Below are positions 2 to 4,971 of a stretch of 4,971 nt of DNA, piece by piece. How positions within the stretch are numbered: position 1 is the first letter of the stretch; each line of letters starts with the position of its first letter. The notes beneath the pieces were generated by a model, which saw only the letters and a list, made by a program, of their open reading frames with translations, did no database searches and was not told the origin of the DNA. A program made the position numbers and the translations under genes. This stretch comes from a virus (Duplodnaviria; Heunggongvirae; Uroviricota; Caudoviricetes). Location: the IMG/VR virus record IMGVR_UViG_2548876945_000007; one strand, written 5' to 3'.

Positions 2-250
2 AAATGGGTGACCGATACTGAGGCACAGCATAGCGCCGCAGTAGACGCGGCAGAAGTACAGCGTCAGTCACTGATTAATACTGCAATGGCTTCCATTAGT
101 CTGATTCAACTTAAATTGCAGGCCGGGCGGCAGCTGATGCAGGCAGAGACCACCCGACTTAACACTGTGCTGGATTACATTGACGCGGTGACGGCAACAG
201 ATACCAGCACAGCGCCGGATGTCATCTGGCCTGAACTGCCGGAGGCGTAG
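2..250 (+). CDS. Tail fibre assembly protein, C-terminal part; the 5' end lies upstream of the window (frame is open to position 2, and the GTG at 8 is only the ORF-finder start)
   Basis: Translation ends ...LNTVLDYIDAVTATDTSTAPDVIWPELPEA, the C-terminal DTS-x-x-PD-x-x-WP signature I recall for lambdoid/Mu/e14-type Tfa proteins. TAG stop at 248-250. Converges on and overlaps the minus-strand tfa by 29 nt. Confidence 0.7.
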   Translation, partial: KWVTDTEAQHSAAVDAAEVQRQSLINTAMASISLIQLKLQAGRQLMQAETTRLNTVLDYIDAVTATDTSTAPDVIWPELPEA

Positions 251-659
251 GCCATTCAATATCTGGCCCACTGGAGGTATCAACCAGCTCCAGTGCGTCC
301 AGGTAATCCAGCCACAAATTATATTGCGCCAGTTCCTCGTCTTTCAGACGACCAATAGCGGCTTTACCGGGCCATTGTTTACTGTTCATGTATTCGTTGG
401 CCAGATTAAGCAATAATTGCCTTTCTGATTCTGCCTGTTGAATAAGTTCTTCATGTGATGGTGGAGGTATTAGTGCCCATGTGGGTAATCCATTTTCTCC
501 TGCAACACGAATTTTGCCATCTGGGGGCGTATTTATTGCAAATTCATTATAAACATCATCACTGACAGCCAGAGCATCATCTGGCCATGAATTTGCATTA
601 ATGTAATCATCCTTAAGTGCAGGATTCACAAAAATGTTTAAAGATGGACTATAAAACAT
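222..659 (-). CDS. Tail fibre assembly protein (145 aa), second inverted copy of the invertible segment
   Basis: C-terminus ...LWLDYLDALELVDTSSGPDIEWPTPPAVQAR carries the same Tfa C-terminal signature as the + strand copy. Its ATG (659-657) lies 1 nt after the TAA stop (663-661) of the upstream stf segment, a typical stf-tfa operon junction. Confidence 0.75.
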   Translation of the reverse strand: MFYSPSLNIFVNPALKDDYINANSWPDDALAVSDDVYNEFAINTPPDGKIRVAGENGLPTWALIPPPSHEELIQQAESERQLLLNLANEYMNSKQWPGKAAIGRLKDEELAQYNLWLDYLDALELVDTSSGPDIEWPTPPAVQAR

Positions 660-660
660 A

Positions 661-1050
661 TTACACCCCTATAGCGATATAACGACCTAATACAGCGTTT
701 GCAGCAGTCGCTATGCTTGAAAAACCGCGGAACTGATTTGATGTAATTGCAGAAGCCGACAGGATTCCTGCGCCTGAAGGTGTATGCCCCACATGACTAA
801 CTATCATTCCATAACATGCTGACGGAAAGGCAAAAGGAAAATCATTAAGATATCCGGCATCTTCACCACCAGACCCACCAAATCTCGCCTGCCCCCACTG
901 AATAATCAGTGTTCTCCGGGAACCTGAAATAATTAACGGAATCGTTACATACCCATTCAGACCAATGACACCCGATGCAGTGCCAGCCAGAGATAATTCT
1001 CCCAAACCAACGTTTATGAAAATGCAGAAATAACAAGCAAATGGCATCAT
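661..1050 (-). CDS. Tail fibre C-terminal variable (receptor-binding) segment, silent orientation copy without its own constant N-terminal part
   Basis: Gly/Ser/Ala-rich 129-aa ORF directly upstream of the tfa on the same strand. The frame is open only 9 codons beyond the listed ATG, up to a stop at 1077-1075, and the crossover site at 987-1012 lies inside its 5' end. This matches the Sv'/U' half of a Mu G-segment or e14 P-segment arrangement. Confidence 0.55.
   Translation of the reverse strand: MMPFACYFCIFINVGLGELSLAGTASGVIGLNGYVTIPLIISGSRRTLIIQWGQARFGGSGGEDAGYLNDFPFAFPSACYGMIVSHVGHTPSGAGILSASAITSNQFRGFSSIATAANAVLGRYIAIGV
987..1012. other. Hin/Gin/Pin/Cin-family invertase crossover site (hix/gix/pix-like), the right boundary of the invertible tail-fibre segment
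   Basis: The 26-bp sequence TTCTCCCAAACCAACGTTTATGAAAA has two imperfect inverted 12-bp half-sites around a central AA. It matches about 21 of 26 positions of hixL as I recall it (TTCTTGAAAACCAAGGTTTTTGATAA), including the AAACC..GGTTT-like core. It sits 65 bp upstream of the invertase start, where gixR/hix sites lie relative to gin/hin. Confidence 0.7.
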
Positions 1051-1076: not shown

Positions 1077-1211
1077 ATGCTGATAGGTTATATACGGGTA
1101 TCAACAAATGAGCAGAATACAGCATTACTAGGAAATGCGCTCGAGTGCGCAGGATGTGAGCTGATTTTTGAAGACAAAATATTTCGAACACTTCTCCCAA
1201 TTTTAAAGTGA
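1077..1211 (+). pseudogene. Truncated serine DNA invertase (Pin/Gin/Hin/Cin family); only about the first 35 codons are retained, then the frame reads into unrelated sequence and stops
   Basis: Translation from ATG 1077 is MLIGYIRVSTNEQNTALLGNALECAGCELIFEDKI, closely resembling the N-termini I recall for Pin/Gin/Hin (MLIGYVRVSTNDQNTDLQRNAL.CAGCE.IFEDK) and including the catalytic-serine context RVST. After nt ~1181 the translation FRTLLPILK-stop (TGA 1209-1211) has no invertase similarity. The ORF is too short to appear in the supplied track. Confidence 0.75.
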
Positions 1212-1275
1212 AGTCGATGGTTTATGCTGGTGCCACGATTATTTCCTCCTGCTTCCCGGTTCAGAAAACAGTCGC

Positions 1276-1304
1276 GAAGAACCAGCCTTAACAGGCTGGT
1301 TCTT
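1276..1304 (-). terminator. Putative intrinsic terminator for the 870-aa gene
   Basis: Inverted repeat GAAGAACCAGCC (1276-1287) / GGCTGGTTCTT (1294-1304) with a 6-nt loop, beginning 7 nt past the TAA stop (1313-1311). On the minus strand a TGTTTTCT run follows the stem after a 6-nt spacer, so the U-tract is not ideally placed. Confidence 0.45.
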
Positions 1305-1310
1305 ATCGGC

Positions 1311-3923
1311 TTAGCTTACAGCTTGATCGAGATCTTCAAGTGCACAAATCATGGTTTCTACTGTTGCTCGGTCAAATTCAGCCCTTCCATCTTCCTCATG
1401 TGTGCCTTTGTTAAGATAGCGCCATTCTCGCGAATCTCCACTAATCCCAGTCAAAACGTCAATTGGACCAAAAACAGCACTTTTATTTTGATCAGTAAAA
1501 TCAGTTTTATTAATCTGTTTTTTTAATTGATCTGACAAATTACGTAACTCAATAGGTGAATTTGCCGACCGTAACTTAAGGCTAAGATTACCGTCACCAT
1601 ATTTATTTACATAGCGCCAGACCTTCACCTTCATCAGCGATTCAAGTGCCTGTCTACATTTAGCGAGAGCTTCCCTAATTTCATTACGTTCGTAATGTTT
1701 TCGTGCCGAGATAATGTAGTTCCTAGGGGCGCAGTTGAAATCGACACGAATATGCAATTCATCTAGACGTGGCAAGAAAGTGAAAGTCTTGGATTGAGCA
1801 GCAACCCGCGTAGGCAGTAAATTTTGGATATCTTTAAAAAATTCCTCTCCATGACAAGCTAGAATGATTTGCTTTTCGGCAAAGAACGTATCTTCAAATA
1901 ACGTTTTTCGAATGGAATCTCTATGATCGTCATCAATAGCATTTACCGGATCATCAAAAATTAAAAGTGGGCACTGCTCATTAATGTTTTTTGCCAATAA
2001 GATCGCTAGTCCTATACAGCGCACATGACCTTCACTTAGCACATGAAGGGCATCAAAATATTGTACGGGATTATTCTGGAACGCCACTTCCAACCGTTGA
2101 TTTTGCATCAGAGGTAATTTGATATCAGCGAGCTTTTCGCCTCTGGAATCATTACGGTTAAACGCATTATAAAGGGTAACAATGTTATCTCCGAGATTTG
2201 CTACGAGTTGCTGAGGTAAACGATCTTTATAGGCGTTCAATCGAATAACAAAGTTGGAATATGCCTCAGAAATTTCTTGGTTTTTCCTAACAATAGCTTT
2301 CTCATGCTCAACTTCATCAATAAGTTGCCTATTTTCGGCATTAAATCTGGTAATTAGCAACTGAGCTTCAGAGATGGACTTCTCTGTTTCCTCTCTTTTT
2401 GTCTGTAATATAGTTATCTGTCGTTCGGTTTCACGCAGACTATCAAGAGATTGCTGTTGCAGTTCTCGTCGTTTAATATTTTCATCTGTTTTTTTATCCT
2501 CTTTCTCCAGATGATGTACCTGTTCTTCAAGAAGAGTCCAAGGGGGTATCCCATCACCTGCCGGTTGCTGTAGTGCACACCACAAATCGCTTCCAGTTTT
2601 ATTTCGGAAATCTTCAAGTGGATTGCTATGCGGAATGAACTGACAACAAGTACTAATAACTTTATGAACGTCGAACATCAGCTGGCTGATTGATTTTTCC
2701 AACTGAGTTATTTCGTCTTGTAGTGTCGATAAAAACTTAAGTTTAAGCAATTCATTACTGGCATATTTGTAAGGGTTTTTTGCAACGTGCTGAAGTGGGG
2801 TATGACATGCAGGACAATGGTCAGGCTTGGTGCTTTGCAACTGGACTACGGCTTCAAATAAATTTTTAAAAGAAATTTGCTGACTTGCCTCTGCCAGTTG
2901 ATTTTGCTTGCCCTTAAGGTCTGTAAGCCCCTTTTCGACTGAATCACTGAGCTTTTTCAAAATGGCAGAGGTTAGACCACTCTTGGCCGGAAGCTGTTTT
3001 TGTAACTCGGTTTCAAGCTGCCGAATGACGCCGATATTTTGCCCATCCCCCTTCAACTCTACAACCATCTGATGGAAAGATATGCCTTCACGATAGCCTG
3101 AGGCTAGAGTTTGTTCTGCTGAGGTTAGTTCTTCAAGGTGGGCCTTACTCGTTTTCAGTTGCTGCTGTGCTCCCAAGAGAGATTGGCTCTTTGTTGCTAA
3201 TTGAGCAGCCTTTACGCCAGTCAGGTCGATATATCGGGCATCAATATCTGAGGTGAAATTTCGCACAAAATCATTAAATGTATCCAACCCGAATAATGTT
3301 GATATAAGTTCGGCTTGCTTTGCTGGGGCCAGAGCAGCGATTCTTGAAAAGCTGTCGATACGATTCTTTTCAATAAAACAAAAGCGATATTGTGTTTCAT
3401 TATTCTCAATCATCACATCCTGCTCTTGATCTCCAACACCTATAATTTCGGGAGCAGAAAACTGATTGACATATGCGTTTCTAAAATAGTCGTGTTGATT
3501 ACGAAAACGCTTACTTTCTGCCTCCGCGACGCGGCCCAGTAATGCGTATTCAAGTGCCTCGCAGAAACTGGATTTCCCCGTACCATTGGGGCCGTAGATC
3601 AGCACTAGGCGGGAATCTAAATCAAACTCCTCTCGTCTGGCAAATCCTCTAAATGGTCCAACAGACATCTTTCTAAGTCGGCTAAAGGTGGAAACACTTT
3701 CGGCGTTCTGCTCAGGGAGTGTTTGGACTTCTGGGCTGAGTGTATCCCAGGCGGATTGAGCCAGAGCGACAATACGTTTGACCCGCTGACCCTGTGCGGT
3801 TCCCAACGGCACGATTTCGTCAAGATTTTCCCACACAAGATTTGCTATTTTCCTTACATCACTTGGTACATCTGCTGTATTTAAGGTTTGAAAAAAACGC
3901 AACAACTCACTGCCGAGCATCAT
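1311..3923 (-). CDS. 870-aa Rad50/SbcC-like ABC ATPase with coiled-coil arms, CxxC zinc hook and a C-terminal putative nuclease/effector domain; RloC-like candidate anti-phage protein
   Basis: Uninterrupted 2.6-kb ORF in AT-rich DNA. Walker A GPNGTGKSS (aa 111-119; nt 3567-3593), CPAC hook (aa 370-373; nt 2805-2816) between two Q/E/K/L-rich coiled-coil-like stretches, signature-like LSEGH (aa 629-633; nt 2025-2039), Walker B LLIFDD (aa 653-658; nt 1950-1967), D-loop-like PVNAIDDD, H-loop His691, then ~170 aa C-terminal extension (aa 700-870; nt 1314-1826). SD-like AAGGA sits 3 nt before the first ATG (3923) and 6 nt before the second (3920), so the true start may be the second ATG. Confidence is for a real CDS with an ABC-ATPase fold; the RloC-like functional call is about 0.5. 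Confidence 0.88.
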   Translation of the reverse strand: MMLGSELLRFFQTLNTADVPSDVRKIANLVWENLDEIVPLGTAQGQRVKRIVALAQSAWDTLSPEVQTLPEQNAESVSTFSRLRKMSVGPFRGFARREEFDLDSRLVLIYGPNGTGKSSFCEALEYALLGRVAEAESKRFRNQHDYFRNAYVNQFSAPEIIGVGDQEQDVMIENNETQYRFCFIEKNRIDSFSRIAALAPAKQAELISTLFGLDTFNDFVRNFTSDIDARYIDLTGVKAAQLATKSQSLLGAQQQLKTSKAHLEELTSAEQTLASGYREGISFHQMVVELKGDGQNIGVIRQLETELQKQLPAKSGLTSAILKKLSDSVEKGLTDLKGKQNQLAEASQQISFKNLFEAVVQLQSTKPDHCPACHTPLQHVAKNPYKYASNELLKLKFLSTLQDEITQLEKSISQLMFDVHKVISTCCQFIPHSNPLEDFRNKTGSDLWCALQQPAGDGIPPWTLLEEQVHHLEKEDKKTDENIKRRELQQQSLDSLRETERQITILQTKREETEKSISEAQLLITRFNAENRQLIDEVEHEKAIVRKNQEISEAYSNFVIRLNAYKDRLPQQLVANLGDNIVTLYNAFNRNDSRGEKLADIKLPLMQNQRLEVAFQNNPVQYFDALHVLSEGHVRCIGLAILLAKNINEQCPLLIFDDPVNAIDDDHRDSIRKTLFEDTFFAEKQIILACHGEEFFKDIQNLLPTRVAAQSKTFTFLPRLDELHIRVDFNCAPRNYIISARKHYERNEIREALAKCRQALESLMKVKVWRYVNKYGDGNLSLKLRSANSPIELRNLSDQLKKQINKTDFTDQNKSAVFGPIDVLTGISGDSREWRYLNKGTHEEDGRAEFDRATVETMICALEDLDQAVS

Positions 3924-3943
3924 AAATCCTTTTTACTTGTTGA

Positions 3944-3972
3944 CTTCTAACGTTATATTGCAATGTTAGAAG
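3944..3972. promoter_or_regulatory. Inverted repeat (possible operator) in the 5' leader/promoter region of the 870-aa gene
   Basis: CTTCTAACGTT (3944-3954) and AATGTTAGAAG (3962-3972) are reverse complements with one mismatch, separated by 7 nt, 21-49 bp upstream of the start codon. I could not assign a convincing -35/-10 pair by eye. Confidence 0.3.
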
Positions 3973-4560
3973 ATACACTTTCAGATTATTTTTTCACGTG
4001 ATCTGCAAATCAAATTTTTACTAATGCTGGCTGATTCGTTATCGACAAACATGTCTTCCTTTTTCCATTCTTACCAGCGATCAGCAAAGCAAATTACACG
4101 GACATGTTACCAGAGTGGCTTAAACATTCTGCTGGTGGGCGCAGTTTCAGAGTGAGCATTAATTAGCAATAACTTATCCAACCACCCAGAGCTATATCCC
4201 AAATGATGGGGTCAAAATGCAGTTGTTCATTACGCTCGCTCAGAAGCATAACGGCGCTACGTTGAAACGTCCGATGGATTCTGGATCGTATGGAATGTCG
4301 CGTTCAACTTCTTCATGGAGTAGGCGAGACAATCTTCACGCGTCATTGACTATGAAAAGCGTCCACACCTAGAAAACTCCGGTCACCTGTAAGATTGAAA
4401 GTATAAGGTATCGTTCTACACGAAACGATTTGACTCCTATAACTGAAAAGCGGTGTCGGTAGTTAAAGGCATTAGTGCCTATTTGGCATATGGAAGCTGA
4501 GAAAGAAAAGAATGGTACTCGTTGATGGGGATAGTTTAAGCACAGTAATTTAAGTAGATG

Positions 4561-4591
4561 AAAAAGCAAAAAGCCCACATCTGTGGGCTTT
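4561..4591 (-). terminator. Rho-independent terminator hairpin, strongest for transcripts arriving on the minus strand from higher coordinates; possibly bidirectional
   Basis: Stem AGCCCACA (4572-4579) / TGTGGGCT (4583-4590) with loop TCT. On the minus strand the stem is followed immediately by TTTTTGCTTTTT (complement of 4561-4571). On the plus strand only TTT follows. Confidence 0.5.
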
Positions 4592-4600
4592 CATGTCACT

Positions 4601-4633
4601 AAGGAGCCGCGGCTCCTTTGCGTATCCTTTTTT
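4601..4633 (+). terminator. Second GC-rich hairpin followed by a T-run; possible plus-strand terminator or structured RNA element
   Basis: Perfect 18-bp palindrome AAGGAGCCGCGGCTCCTT (4601-4618), then a TTTTTT run at 4628-4633 after a 9-nt spacer. The spacing is atypical for a canonical intrinsic terminator. Confidence 0.3.
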
Positions 4634-4708
4634 GTCTCCTCACCGTCTGGTCGGTGTCCTGCTGAGACTGCTAACTACCTGTTTTTGTTGGTGTTGTCCT
4701 TACACCGT

Positions 4709-4722
4709 CCAATCATGATTGG
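4709..4722. promoter_or_regulatory. Perfect 14-bp palindrome, candidate dimeric protein-binding site
   Basis: CCAATCATGATTGG is its own reverse complement. It lies in a region without a convincing ORF. Confidence 0.25.
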
Positions 4723-4971
4723 TGGAGCTGGCGGGAGTTGAAACCGCAGGCATGTCGTATGCAAGAACGTGCTGCGGTTGGCTGGTGAACTTCCGATAGT
4801 GCGAGTATTGAATGATTTCCAACTGTTATCGATTTTGCGTATTTTTTGCATGAGAGGATTTTTACCTCCTCCCACCGATCCTCCATGGCTTTACGCCAGT
4901 GTCTCTGGTCTGCTATGTGCCAGGAGCAGCCATTGCTAAGTCCATCCTGTATTGTGCAGGTCAGCTCGTTT

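Follow-up and report, generated by a model that had tools for sequence, protein, structure and literature searches.

An e14-like prophage with a truncated pin gene and a tail-fibre switch that probably still inverts in trans

Described inversion switches and the layout of the locus

The DNA invertases Gin, Cin, Pin and Hin complement one another. The catalytic residue of Gin is Ser9 (PMC3575834), and Gin/Hin-type systems carry their Fis-dependent enhancer, or Fis sites, within the 5' part of the coding sequence of the invertase (PMC3378877, citing Kahmann 1985), as in phage Mu, whose enhancer lies inside gin (PMC3378877). The Hin enhancer spans 65 bp, has a Fis site at each end and is located ~99-100 bp from hix (PMC3798978). 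For the invertible segment of the e14 prophage, experiments have demonstrated inversion by PinQ and PinR (PMC12529663).

We analyzed a stretch of 4,971 nt (referred to below as the window) from the IMG/VR virus record IMGVR_UViG_2548876945_000007. Comparison with related RefSeq loci identified it as the right end of an e14/SfV-like prophage with Mu-type baseplate genes. The contents of the window, established by ORF listing and Pfam scans, are collected in Table 1. The genes and sites follow the order stf-tfa / tfa'-stf' / crossover site / pin, as they do in the P segment of e14 with PinE (K-12) and in strains 0-4, PapM-32-1, GE3 and AH01; these e14-type loci also have the same 26-bp site and belong to the same prophage type (ymfQ, Mu-like baseplate). 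In contrast to them, the pin gene of the window breaks off behind codon 35, and a 3.56-kb block takes the place of codons 36-184. The remaining stub is nearest to the AH01 allele and shows ~15-20% DNA divergence from e14-type pinE. As compared with the G segment of Mu, the first 35 residues of the stub are identical to Gin at 26 of 35 positions, the spacing between crossover site and enhancer homologue is the same, and the predicted homologue lies inside the stub as the Mu enhancer lies inside gin; however, the window has no cis invertase, and one invariant core base is changed.

The alternative tail-fibre C-termini and assembly genes are oppositely oriented in the segment, with tfa on the plus strand and both tfa' and the gp53-like cassette on the minus strand. 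After inversion, this cassette joins the constant 5' part of stf at the crossover site. To the right of the ATPase gene, the ORF listing gave ~1 kb without long ORFs. In strain 779, which carries the same truncated prophage, the element is ~40 kb long and apparently complete, with integrase, repressor, lysis, terminase, capsid, sheath and tail genes.

Table 1. Features of the window, with positions counted from its first nucleotide
Feature	Position	Strand	Basis
tfa 3' end, currently expressed orientation, inside the invertible segment	8..250	+	Pfam Caudo_TAP, E 2.7e-20; annotated tfa in relatives
tfa', alternative assembly gene, silent orientation	222..659	-	145-aa ORF; Pfam Caudo_TAP, E 2.4e-33
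Alternative tail-fibre C-terminal cassette, gp53-like_C	661..1050	-	ORF; Pfam Gp53-like_C, E 1.2e-12
Right 26-bp crossover site, pix/gix-type	997..1022	+	Copies in 15 related loci; endpoints of the 165/779 inversion
Pin stub, codons 1-35, including the Ser9 position	1077..1181	+	tblastn; Pfam Resolvase; intact-allele alignment
Fis-dependent enhancer homologue	1098..1161		Positional homology with pin and Mu gin
Left junction 1181/1182, unrelated 9-codon tail FRTLLPILK and stop	1182..1211	+	Alignment
129-bp spacer with hairpin	1182..1310		Present only in the 16 junction-bearing genomes
870-aa SMC/Rad50-type (LmuB-like) ATPase, cargo gene	1311..3923	-	ORF; Pfam SMC_N 1.7e-16; PADLOC LmuB 1.1e-26
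Decayed SRAP/YedK-like remnant	4056..4367	-	tblastn with AH01 SRAP, E 1.3e-21; RefSeq pseudogene in relatives
Arm of an ssrA-integrating prophage, ending in an ssrA 3'-end copy	4568..4742		92% identical to attR-proximal DNA of strain 0-4
Right junction and retained pin 3' flank	4739..4840	+	Alignment with three intact pin ends and ssrA; blastn

Truncation of pin and the block in its place

The reading frame of the stub begins with ATG at 1077 and ends with TGA at 1209-1211, and its first 35 codons (1077-1181), MLIGYIRVSTNEQNTALLGNALECAGCELIFEDKI, match Pin. In a tblastn search with the intact Pin of AH01, residues 1-35 only were recovered (88.6% identity, E 1.3e-17), and residues 36-184 showed no similarity in any frame of the window. 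The nine codons past 1181 are unrelated to Pin. The Pfam Resolvase profile covered amino acids 3-34 (E 3.9e-4), with a score of 21 bits that falls below the 23.3-bit cutoff, as is to be expected of a piece of only 35 residues. The serine-nucleophile motif YxRVSTxxQ is present, in the stub as MLIGYIRVSTNEQ, and its Ser9 is aligned to Ser9 of Gin and Pin. Missing from the stub are a complete catalytic domain (~100-140 residues, above the Pfam Resolvase threshold), the oligomerisation helix and the C-terminal helix-turn-helix DNA-binding domain. Judged by its sequence, the stub is a pseudogene fragment and not a member of the serine DNA invertase family. As compared with the nearest allele type, AH01, it carries the changes V6I, D12E, Q18L and R19G, the last three of which hit positions invariant in five intact alleles including Mu Gin, and it is decaying.

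The alignment with intact pin loci, which the preliminary description of this DNA had proposed for mapping the breakpoint, placed it exactly at 1181/1182. Similarity to E. coli loci with intact pin covers 1-1181 or 997-1181 of the window and ends at 1180/1181, and the alignments with phage records end at the same breakpoint in 40 of the 40 matches listed of 91. We thus directly observe what that description had read from the letters, namely that the invertase is cut off after ~35 codons and that similarity is lost at ~1181, ahead of a stop at 1209-1211. The stop codon of the convergent 870-aa gene, which had been put at a distance of ~130 bp, is located at 1311-1313, 130 bp from the break.

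A break of this kind might be a sequencing or assembly error that conceals an invertase of full length. We found the identical junction in 16 of 5,426 complete E. coli genomes, with 99.1-99.6% identity over 1082-1310, and these genomes were produced by independent laboratories; the RefSeq name at the junction is 'DNA-invertase, incomplete, missing C-terminus'. Four chicken isolates look clonal, and the genomes were therefore counted as 13 lineages in addition to the window. The presence of the same junction in 16 independently assembled complete genomes indicates that it is real and inherited, and an error was rejected on this ground. Together with the lack of any trace of Pin residues 36-184 in the frames of the window, and with 3.56 kb of coherent foreign genes lying between two pin flanks, this makes a full-length invertase hardly conceivable. 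Among the 40 matches listed of 91 in the phage collection, no record carries the junction. An IS1 element occurs in strain 1008S13 only (L005 6345-7521), where it has reduced the ATPase gene to 324 nt without altering the pin stub or the junction; past the shortened ATPase gene, the region runs into gtr/yfd O-antigen modification genes.

The loss of the remaining invertase had been attributed to an insertion or replacement, and the sequence bears this out. The 3.56-kb block (1182-~4742) occupies the exact place of pin codons 36-184 and contains the hairpin, the ATPase cassette, the decayed SRAP pseudogene and a phage arm with an ssrA 3'-end copy. On its right side, the pin stop codon TGA is found at 4739-4741, followed by the sequence that follows pin in three intact loci, and 4739-4821 of the window matches the DNA directly 3' of pin in these loci (L004, L019 and L020; blastn). 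The further supposition that whatever lay downstream had also been removed is therefore incorrect, as the stop codon and the downstream flank are kept from 4739. Both junctions are seen directly in the alignments. Identity with ssrA extends to 4742 and identity with the pin flank starts at 4739, with an overlap of TGAA (4739-4742), which places the crossover within these four bases. The left junction (1181/1182) is without a repeat.

Flanking direct repeats, the search for which had also been proposed, were sought at the ends of 1182-4742; neither direct nor inverted repeats flank this interval, and the right junction has only the 4-bp microhomology TGAA. With no such repeats and no transposase, insertion of a transposon or IS element was rejected. 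The lack of a repeat on the left and the TGAA at the right junction suggest recombination of an illegitimate type, unlike transposition. The replacement looks like illegitimate recombination between prophage ends, possibly secondary-site recombination, and for the right junction illegitimate recombination and integrase action at a pseudo-att site both fit.

The right part of the block bears on the donor. The stretch 4568-4742 directly adjoins ssrA in strain 0-4 and continues into a real tmRNA gene in strains LT2-3 and E14; the terminator scan placed a minus-strand terminator inside this prophage arm, at 4592-4569. The ssrA 3'-end copy, GGAGCTGGCGGGAGTTGAA, is located at 4722-4747 of the window (~4722-4742 in the arm) and is also found at 10643-10667 of two related loci (L007 and L009). 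It is situated inside the prophage, where the microhomology TGAA joins it to the stop codon left over from pin. Neither ARAGORN nor Rfam reported a tmRNA in the window, where no more than ~21 nt of the ssrA 3' end are present. The SRAP remnant is the N-terminal half of a gene for an SOS-response-associated peptidase; it corresponds to residues 2-109 of 222, contains several in-frame stops and breaks off at a distance of ~40 bp from the ATPase cassette's upstream end. An intact SRAP gene adjoins attR in the related prophages GE3 and AH01, alongside DinI and umuDC-like genes, and the layout of the intact relatives, pin-(cargo)-DinI-umuDC-SRAP-attR, is the ancestral one. These comparisons argue that the block was taken from the right end of a related ssrA-integrating prophage.

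In nine of the lineages, the prophage occupies a position between yjjG and prfC, possesses a 22-bp att repeat of its own and carries a DinI gene to the right of the block, indicating that the ssrA copy is an internal fossil in these prfC-type prophages. The truncation may either have arisen first at ssrA and then moved, or the block may have been spliced directly into a pin-DinI prophage. Past 4840, the window departs from the prfC-type prophages and tracks strain 50EVAW to 4927, and its final ~70 bp (4900-4971) match ydfV-like Qin-type prophage sequence with 93-97% identity. This divergence and the ydfV-like end mean that the right-hand context differs once more in the source genome.

On the left side of the block, the 129-bp spacer (1182-1310) separates the break from the ATPase cassette. 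A donor for it was found neither in E. coli genomes outside the 16 nor in 48 loci of other species with ATPase homologues. Within it, 1241-1305 is 84-88% similar to 55-65-bp elements near the right ends of the AH01 and GE3 prophages. Directly after the ATPase stop codon, there is a perfect 12-bp hairpin, with stems at 1277-1288 and 1293-1304 and a predicted RNA fold of -26.5 kcal/mol (z -3.05). The hairpin (1277-1304) lacks a T-run, and the terminator scan did not score it. The event that truncated pin had been regarded as the plausible source of the ATPase gene as well. This stands insofar as the gene lies inside the block; however, its cassette lies 129 bp off the break, and the donor may have acquired the ATPase in an event separate from the truncation of pin.

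The cargo ATPase has a Rad50/SMC-type head, with a long coiled-coil insert that contains a CPAC motif between the halves of the ATPase head. LmuB, the SMC-like ATPase of the anti-phage Lamassu systems, was its best PADLOC match (aa 176-702), and shares with it the type of head and the long coiled-coil insert. In contrast to Lamassu, the ATPase is accompanied by neither LmuA nor LmuC and has extra N- and C-terminal regions. Membership in Lamassu was rejected, as no LmuA partner was found in the window or in four other contexts. Homology to copies of this one gene in unrelated E. coli islands delimits the cassette, including the promoter region, to 1311-4018. The ATPase belongs to a large family, whose full-length homologues (50-85% identity, ~870 aa) occur in several phyla and are named only 'AAA family ATPase'; none was found in the phage collection. 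Wherever its context was examined, the gene is a single one with no conserved partner, placed at a prophage or island edge: in Proteus it lies beside a tail-fibre gene and the att flank, E. coli and Vreelandella have it in other islands, and its neighbors, the pin stub and the SRAP remnant in the window, are unrelated in the four other contexts. It may reasonably be guessed that this putative defence ATPase acts on its own, in an anti-phage or exclusion role.

Cis-acting parts of the switch and inversion between two truncated prophages

The right crossover site, TTCTCCCAAACCAACGTTTATGAAAA, with the structure TTCTCCCAAACC-AA-CGTTTATGAAAA, is intact in the window, as the preliminary description had stated, although the coordinates given there (987-1012) were off by 10 bp from the true position, 997-1022. 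An exact or one-mismatch copy is found at this position in 15 of 15 related loci, and each of them has the inverted partner, CTCTCGAAAACCTTGGTTTGGGAGAA, inside stf. The partner site is located ~1.9 kb to the left, beyond the edge of the window, and occurs in the intact relatives as well as in each of the 13 truncated lineages; both sites are intact in 13 of the 13. As their inner halves are perfect inverted repeats of each other, a flip leaves both sites unaltered.

We placed the Fis-core positions by homology together with the published enhancer descriptions (PMC3378877 and PMC3798978). The proximal core homologue is GTATCAACAAATGAG (1098-1112) and the distal one is GCGCAGGATGTGAGC (1147-1161), with their centers 49 bp apart; the two Fis sites of an enhancer of this type are separated by ~48 bp. 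In an alignment of five pin alleles and Mu gin, each core is identical to the intact alleles at 14 of 15 positions. The distance between the center of the crossover site and that of the proximal core is 95.5 bp, in the window and Mu alike. At the final position of the proximal core (+7 of the 15 bp), the window has G where 6 of 6 intact alleles have C, a change that could weaken enhancer activity. The break lies 20 bp beyond the distal core, and the retained 105 bp hold the whole enhancer homologue. All cis-acting parts of the switch, that is, the right site, its partner in stf and the enhancer homologue, thus appear to survive.

One possible explanation for the retention of the enhancer homologue, at its native spacing, is that selection has kept the 105-bp stub, either for the enhancer or for an effect on the convergent ATPase gene (e.g., antisense or terminating transcription). 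The position of the break just past the distal core would suit this idea, as would the 99-100% conservation of the stub across 13 lineages next to a segment that varies, and the strong hairpin between the stub and the ATPase stop. However, by simple arithmetic a random break in a 555-bp gene spares the enhancer ~85% of the time, so that its retention is what chance predicts and needs no special explanation. Furthermore, all copies derive from one event, meaning that the conservation reflects recency, and changes have already occurred at three invariant codons and at one invariant base of the core. We therefore regard selection for the stub as very improbable.

The same truncated prophage is found at prfC in strains 165 (USA) and 779 (China). 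To the left of the segment, the two strains share 99.94% identity over 5.0 kb of flanking DNA, and to the right they share 100% over 7.3 kb. We found that the 1,933 bp between the sites are 99.95% identical in the two strains and yet inverted, with the endpoints inside the 26-bp sites. Such a precise flip of a near-identical segment indicates that inversion occurred without a cis invertase. The difference between the strains bears the signature of site-specific inversion, and this inversion is much younger than the truncation, which is common to the 13 lineages. A clean inversion was seen in this one near-isogenic pair only, the segments being ~87% alike between lineages. Among the truncated lineages, the orientation is that of the window in 5 and the opposite in 9; the cassettes themselves differ, and the comparison is confounded by this.

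Apart from the truncated locus, a combined query recovered two pin-like places on the chromosome of strain 165 and two on that of strain 779, which were counted and not inspected. By the same count, the number ranged from 0 to 4, with four in strain 50EVAW and none in strains E1 and FDAARGOS_1262; as these two have no other chromosomal pin-like locus, the switch may be locked in them. The preliminary description had suggested that inversion could still be driven in trans by a related invertase, and the exact flip between 165 and 779 without a cis invertase, in chromosomes that each have two further pin-like loci, agrees with it. Most likely, invertases from other loci of the genome continue to flip the segment. 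The action of PinQ and PinR, from Qin and Rac, on e14 (PMC12529663) is a precedent, in which an invertase from elsewhere acts on the segment of another prophage, as we infer for 165 and 779. The K-12 target keeps its own pinE, whereas the truncated prophage has none and would depend on trans action obligatorily; moreover, the K-12 evidence is experimental, whereas the evidence here is comparative.

It is also conceivable that the switch is dead, that is, that loss of pin froze the segment and the two orientations arose from whole segments being swapped with other prophages by homologous exchange, or from choices made in assembly, and not by site-specific inversion once pin had been truncated. 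The segments are indeed mosaic. Positions 1-1009 of the window share 99.5% identity with the segment of strains 0-4 and PapM-32-1, in which pin is intact, and only ~87% with the segments of the other truncated lineages. Between the window and strain 0-4, there are 0 mismatches in 900-1034 and 30 in 1035-1181, whereas the window and the truncated strain 165 differ by one mismatch in 997-1400; right of the mosaic breakpoint, the window is 99.6-99.8% identical to the truncated lineage. This switch in mismatches locates the exchange point within 997-1034, an interval containing the crossover site, and points to an exchange of invertible segments among prophages at, or close to, the 26-bp crossover sites. 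A frozen segment would also accord with the proximal Fis core lacking its invariant last base and with the two lineages that have no other chromosomal pin-like locus.

The behavior of e14 after loss of pinE points in the same direction. Knockouts of the Keio collection reportedly remove the coding sequence of the gene. In the PinQ study, deletion of pinE left the e14 segment locked (PMC12529663); if the coding sequence was removed, the enhancer within the invertase gene went with it, a point of ours that is unstated in PMC12529663. Loss of the enhancer along with the pinE coding sequence would explain why e14 was locked despite PinQ and PinR, and also why it matters that the 105-bp stub was retained.

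The pair 165/779 is difficult to reconcile with a frozen segment, as the two prophages differ by a precise flip of a 99.95%-identical segment in otherwise identical DNA. The common inverted repeat is only ~14 bp long, and a repeat of this length is too short for efficient RecA-dependent inversion. To assume that the same segment was imported the other way round would be much less parsimonious, and both strains have two other pin-like loci. On balance, we consider it unlikely that the switch is dead, and prefer the hypothesis of inversion in trans.

Invertase loss and the biology of invertible tail-fibre loci

We propose that pin codons 36-184 were replaced by a right-end block of an ssrA-integrating relative, and that the parts needed in cis, i.e., the right site, the stf partner and, in the retained 105 bp, the enhancer homologue, remained. 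A Pin-family invertase from a co-resident prophage or plasmid would bind both sites, and Fis bound to the enhancer would activate it, making the prophage dependent on co-resident elements for tail-fibre switching. Taken as a whole, this account, with pin replaced, the cis parts kept and the segment still invertible in trans, appears to us to be likely. The intact site and the inversion between near-identical truncated prophages are direct observations; catalysis in trans by a Pin-family enzyme, a working enhancer homologue and the applicability to the genome of the window are what we infer.

A more far-reaching and rather doubtful proposal is that the switch is a functional 'orphan', a cis module without a recombinase, made up of two sites and the stub with its enhancer, which an otherwise complete prophage keeps because it is operated by invertases that co-resident prophages supply. 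In that case, host-range switching, or a surface defence of the e14/StfE2 type, would depend on the other prophages of the cell, and the sharing of invertases would be a recurrent evolutionary state and not a transient step of decay.

A pseudogenised invertase and trans-complementation among Pin-family enzymes are already well known and the outcome is an ordinary one; the locus leaves the current understanding of Gin/Pin systems unaltered and is a tidy example rather than a surprise. It exemplifies a swap of cargo between prophage ends, in which a block from an ssrA-integrating relative, with a fossil ssrA copy, was spliced between codon 35 and the stop codon of pin. The pair 165/779 adds evidence from natural isolates for the sharing of invertases between prophages, complementing what PinQ and e14 have shown in the laboratory. 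A cis-acting enhancer can persist in a 'pseudogene' stub, and an invertible tail-fibre locus can remain active after its own invertase has been lost, so that counts of invertase genes under-report switchable loci.
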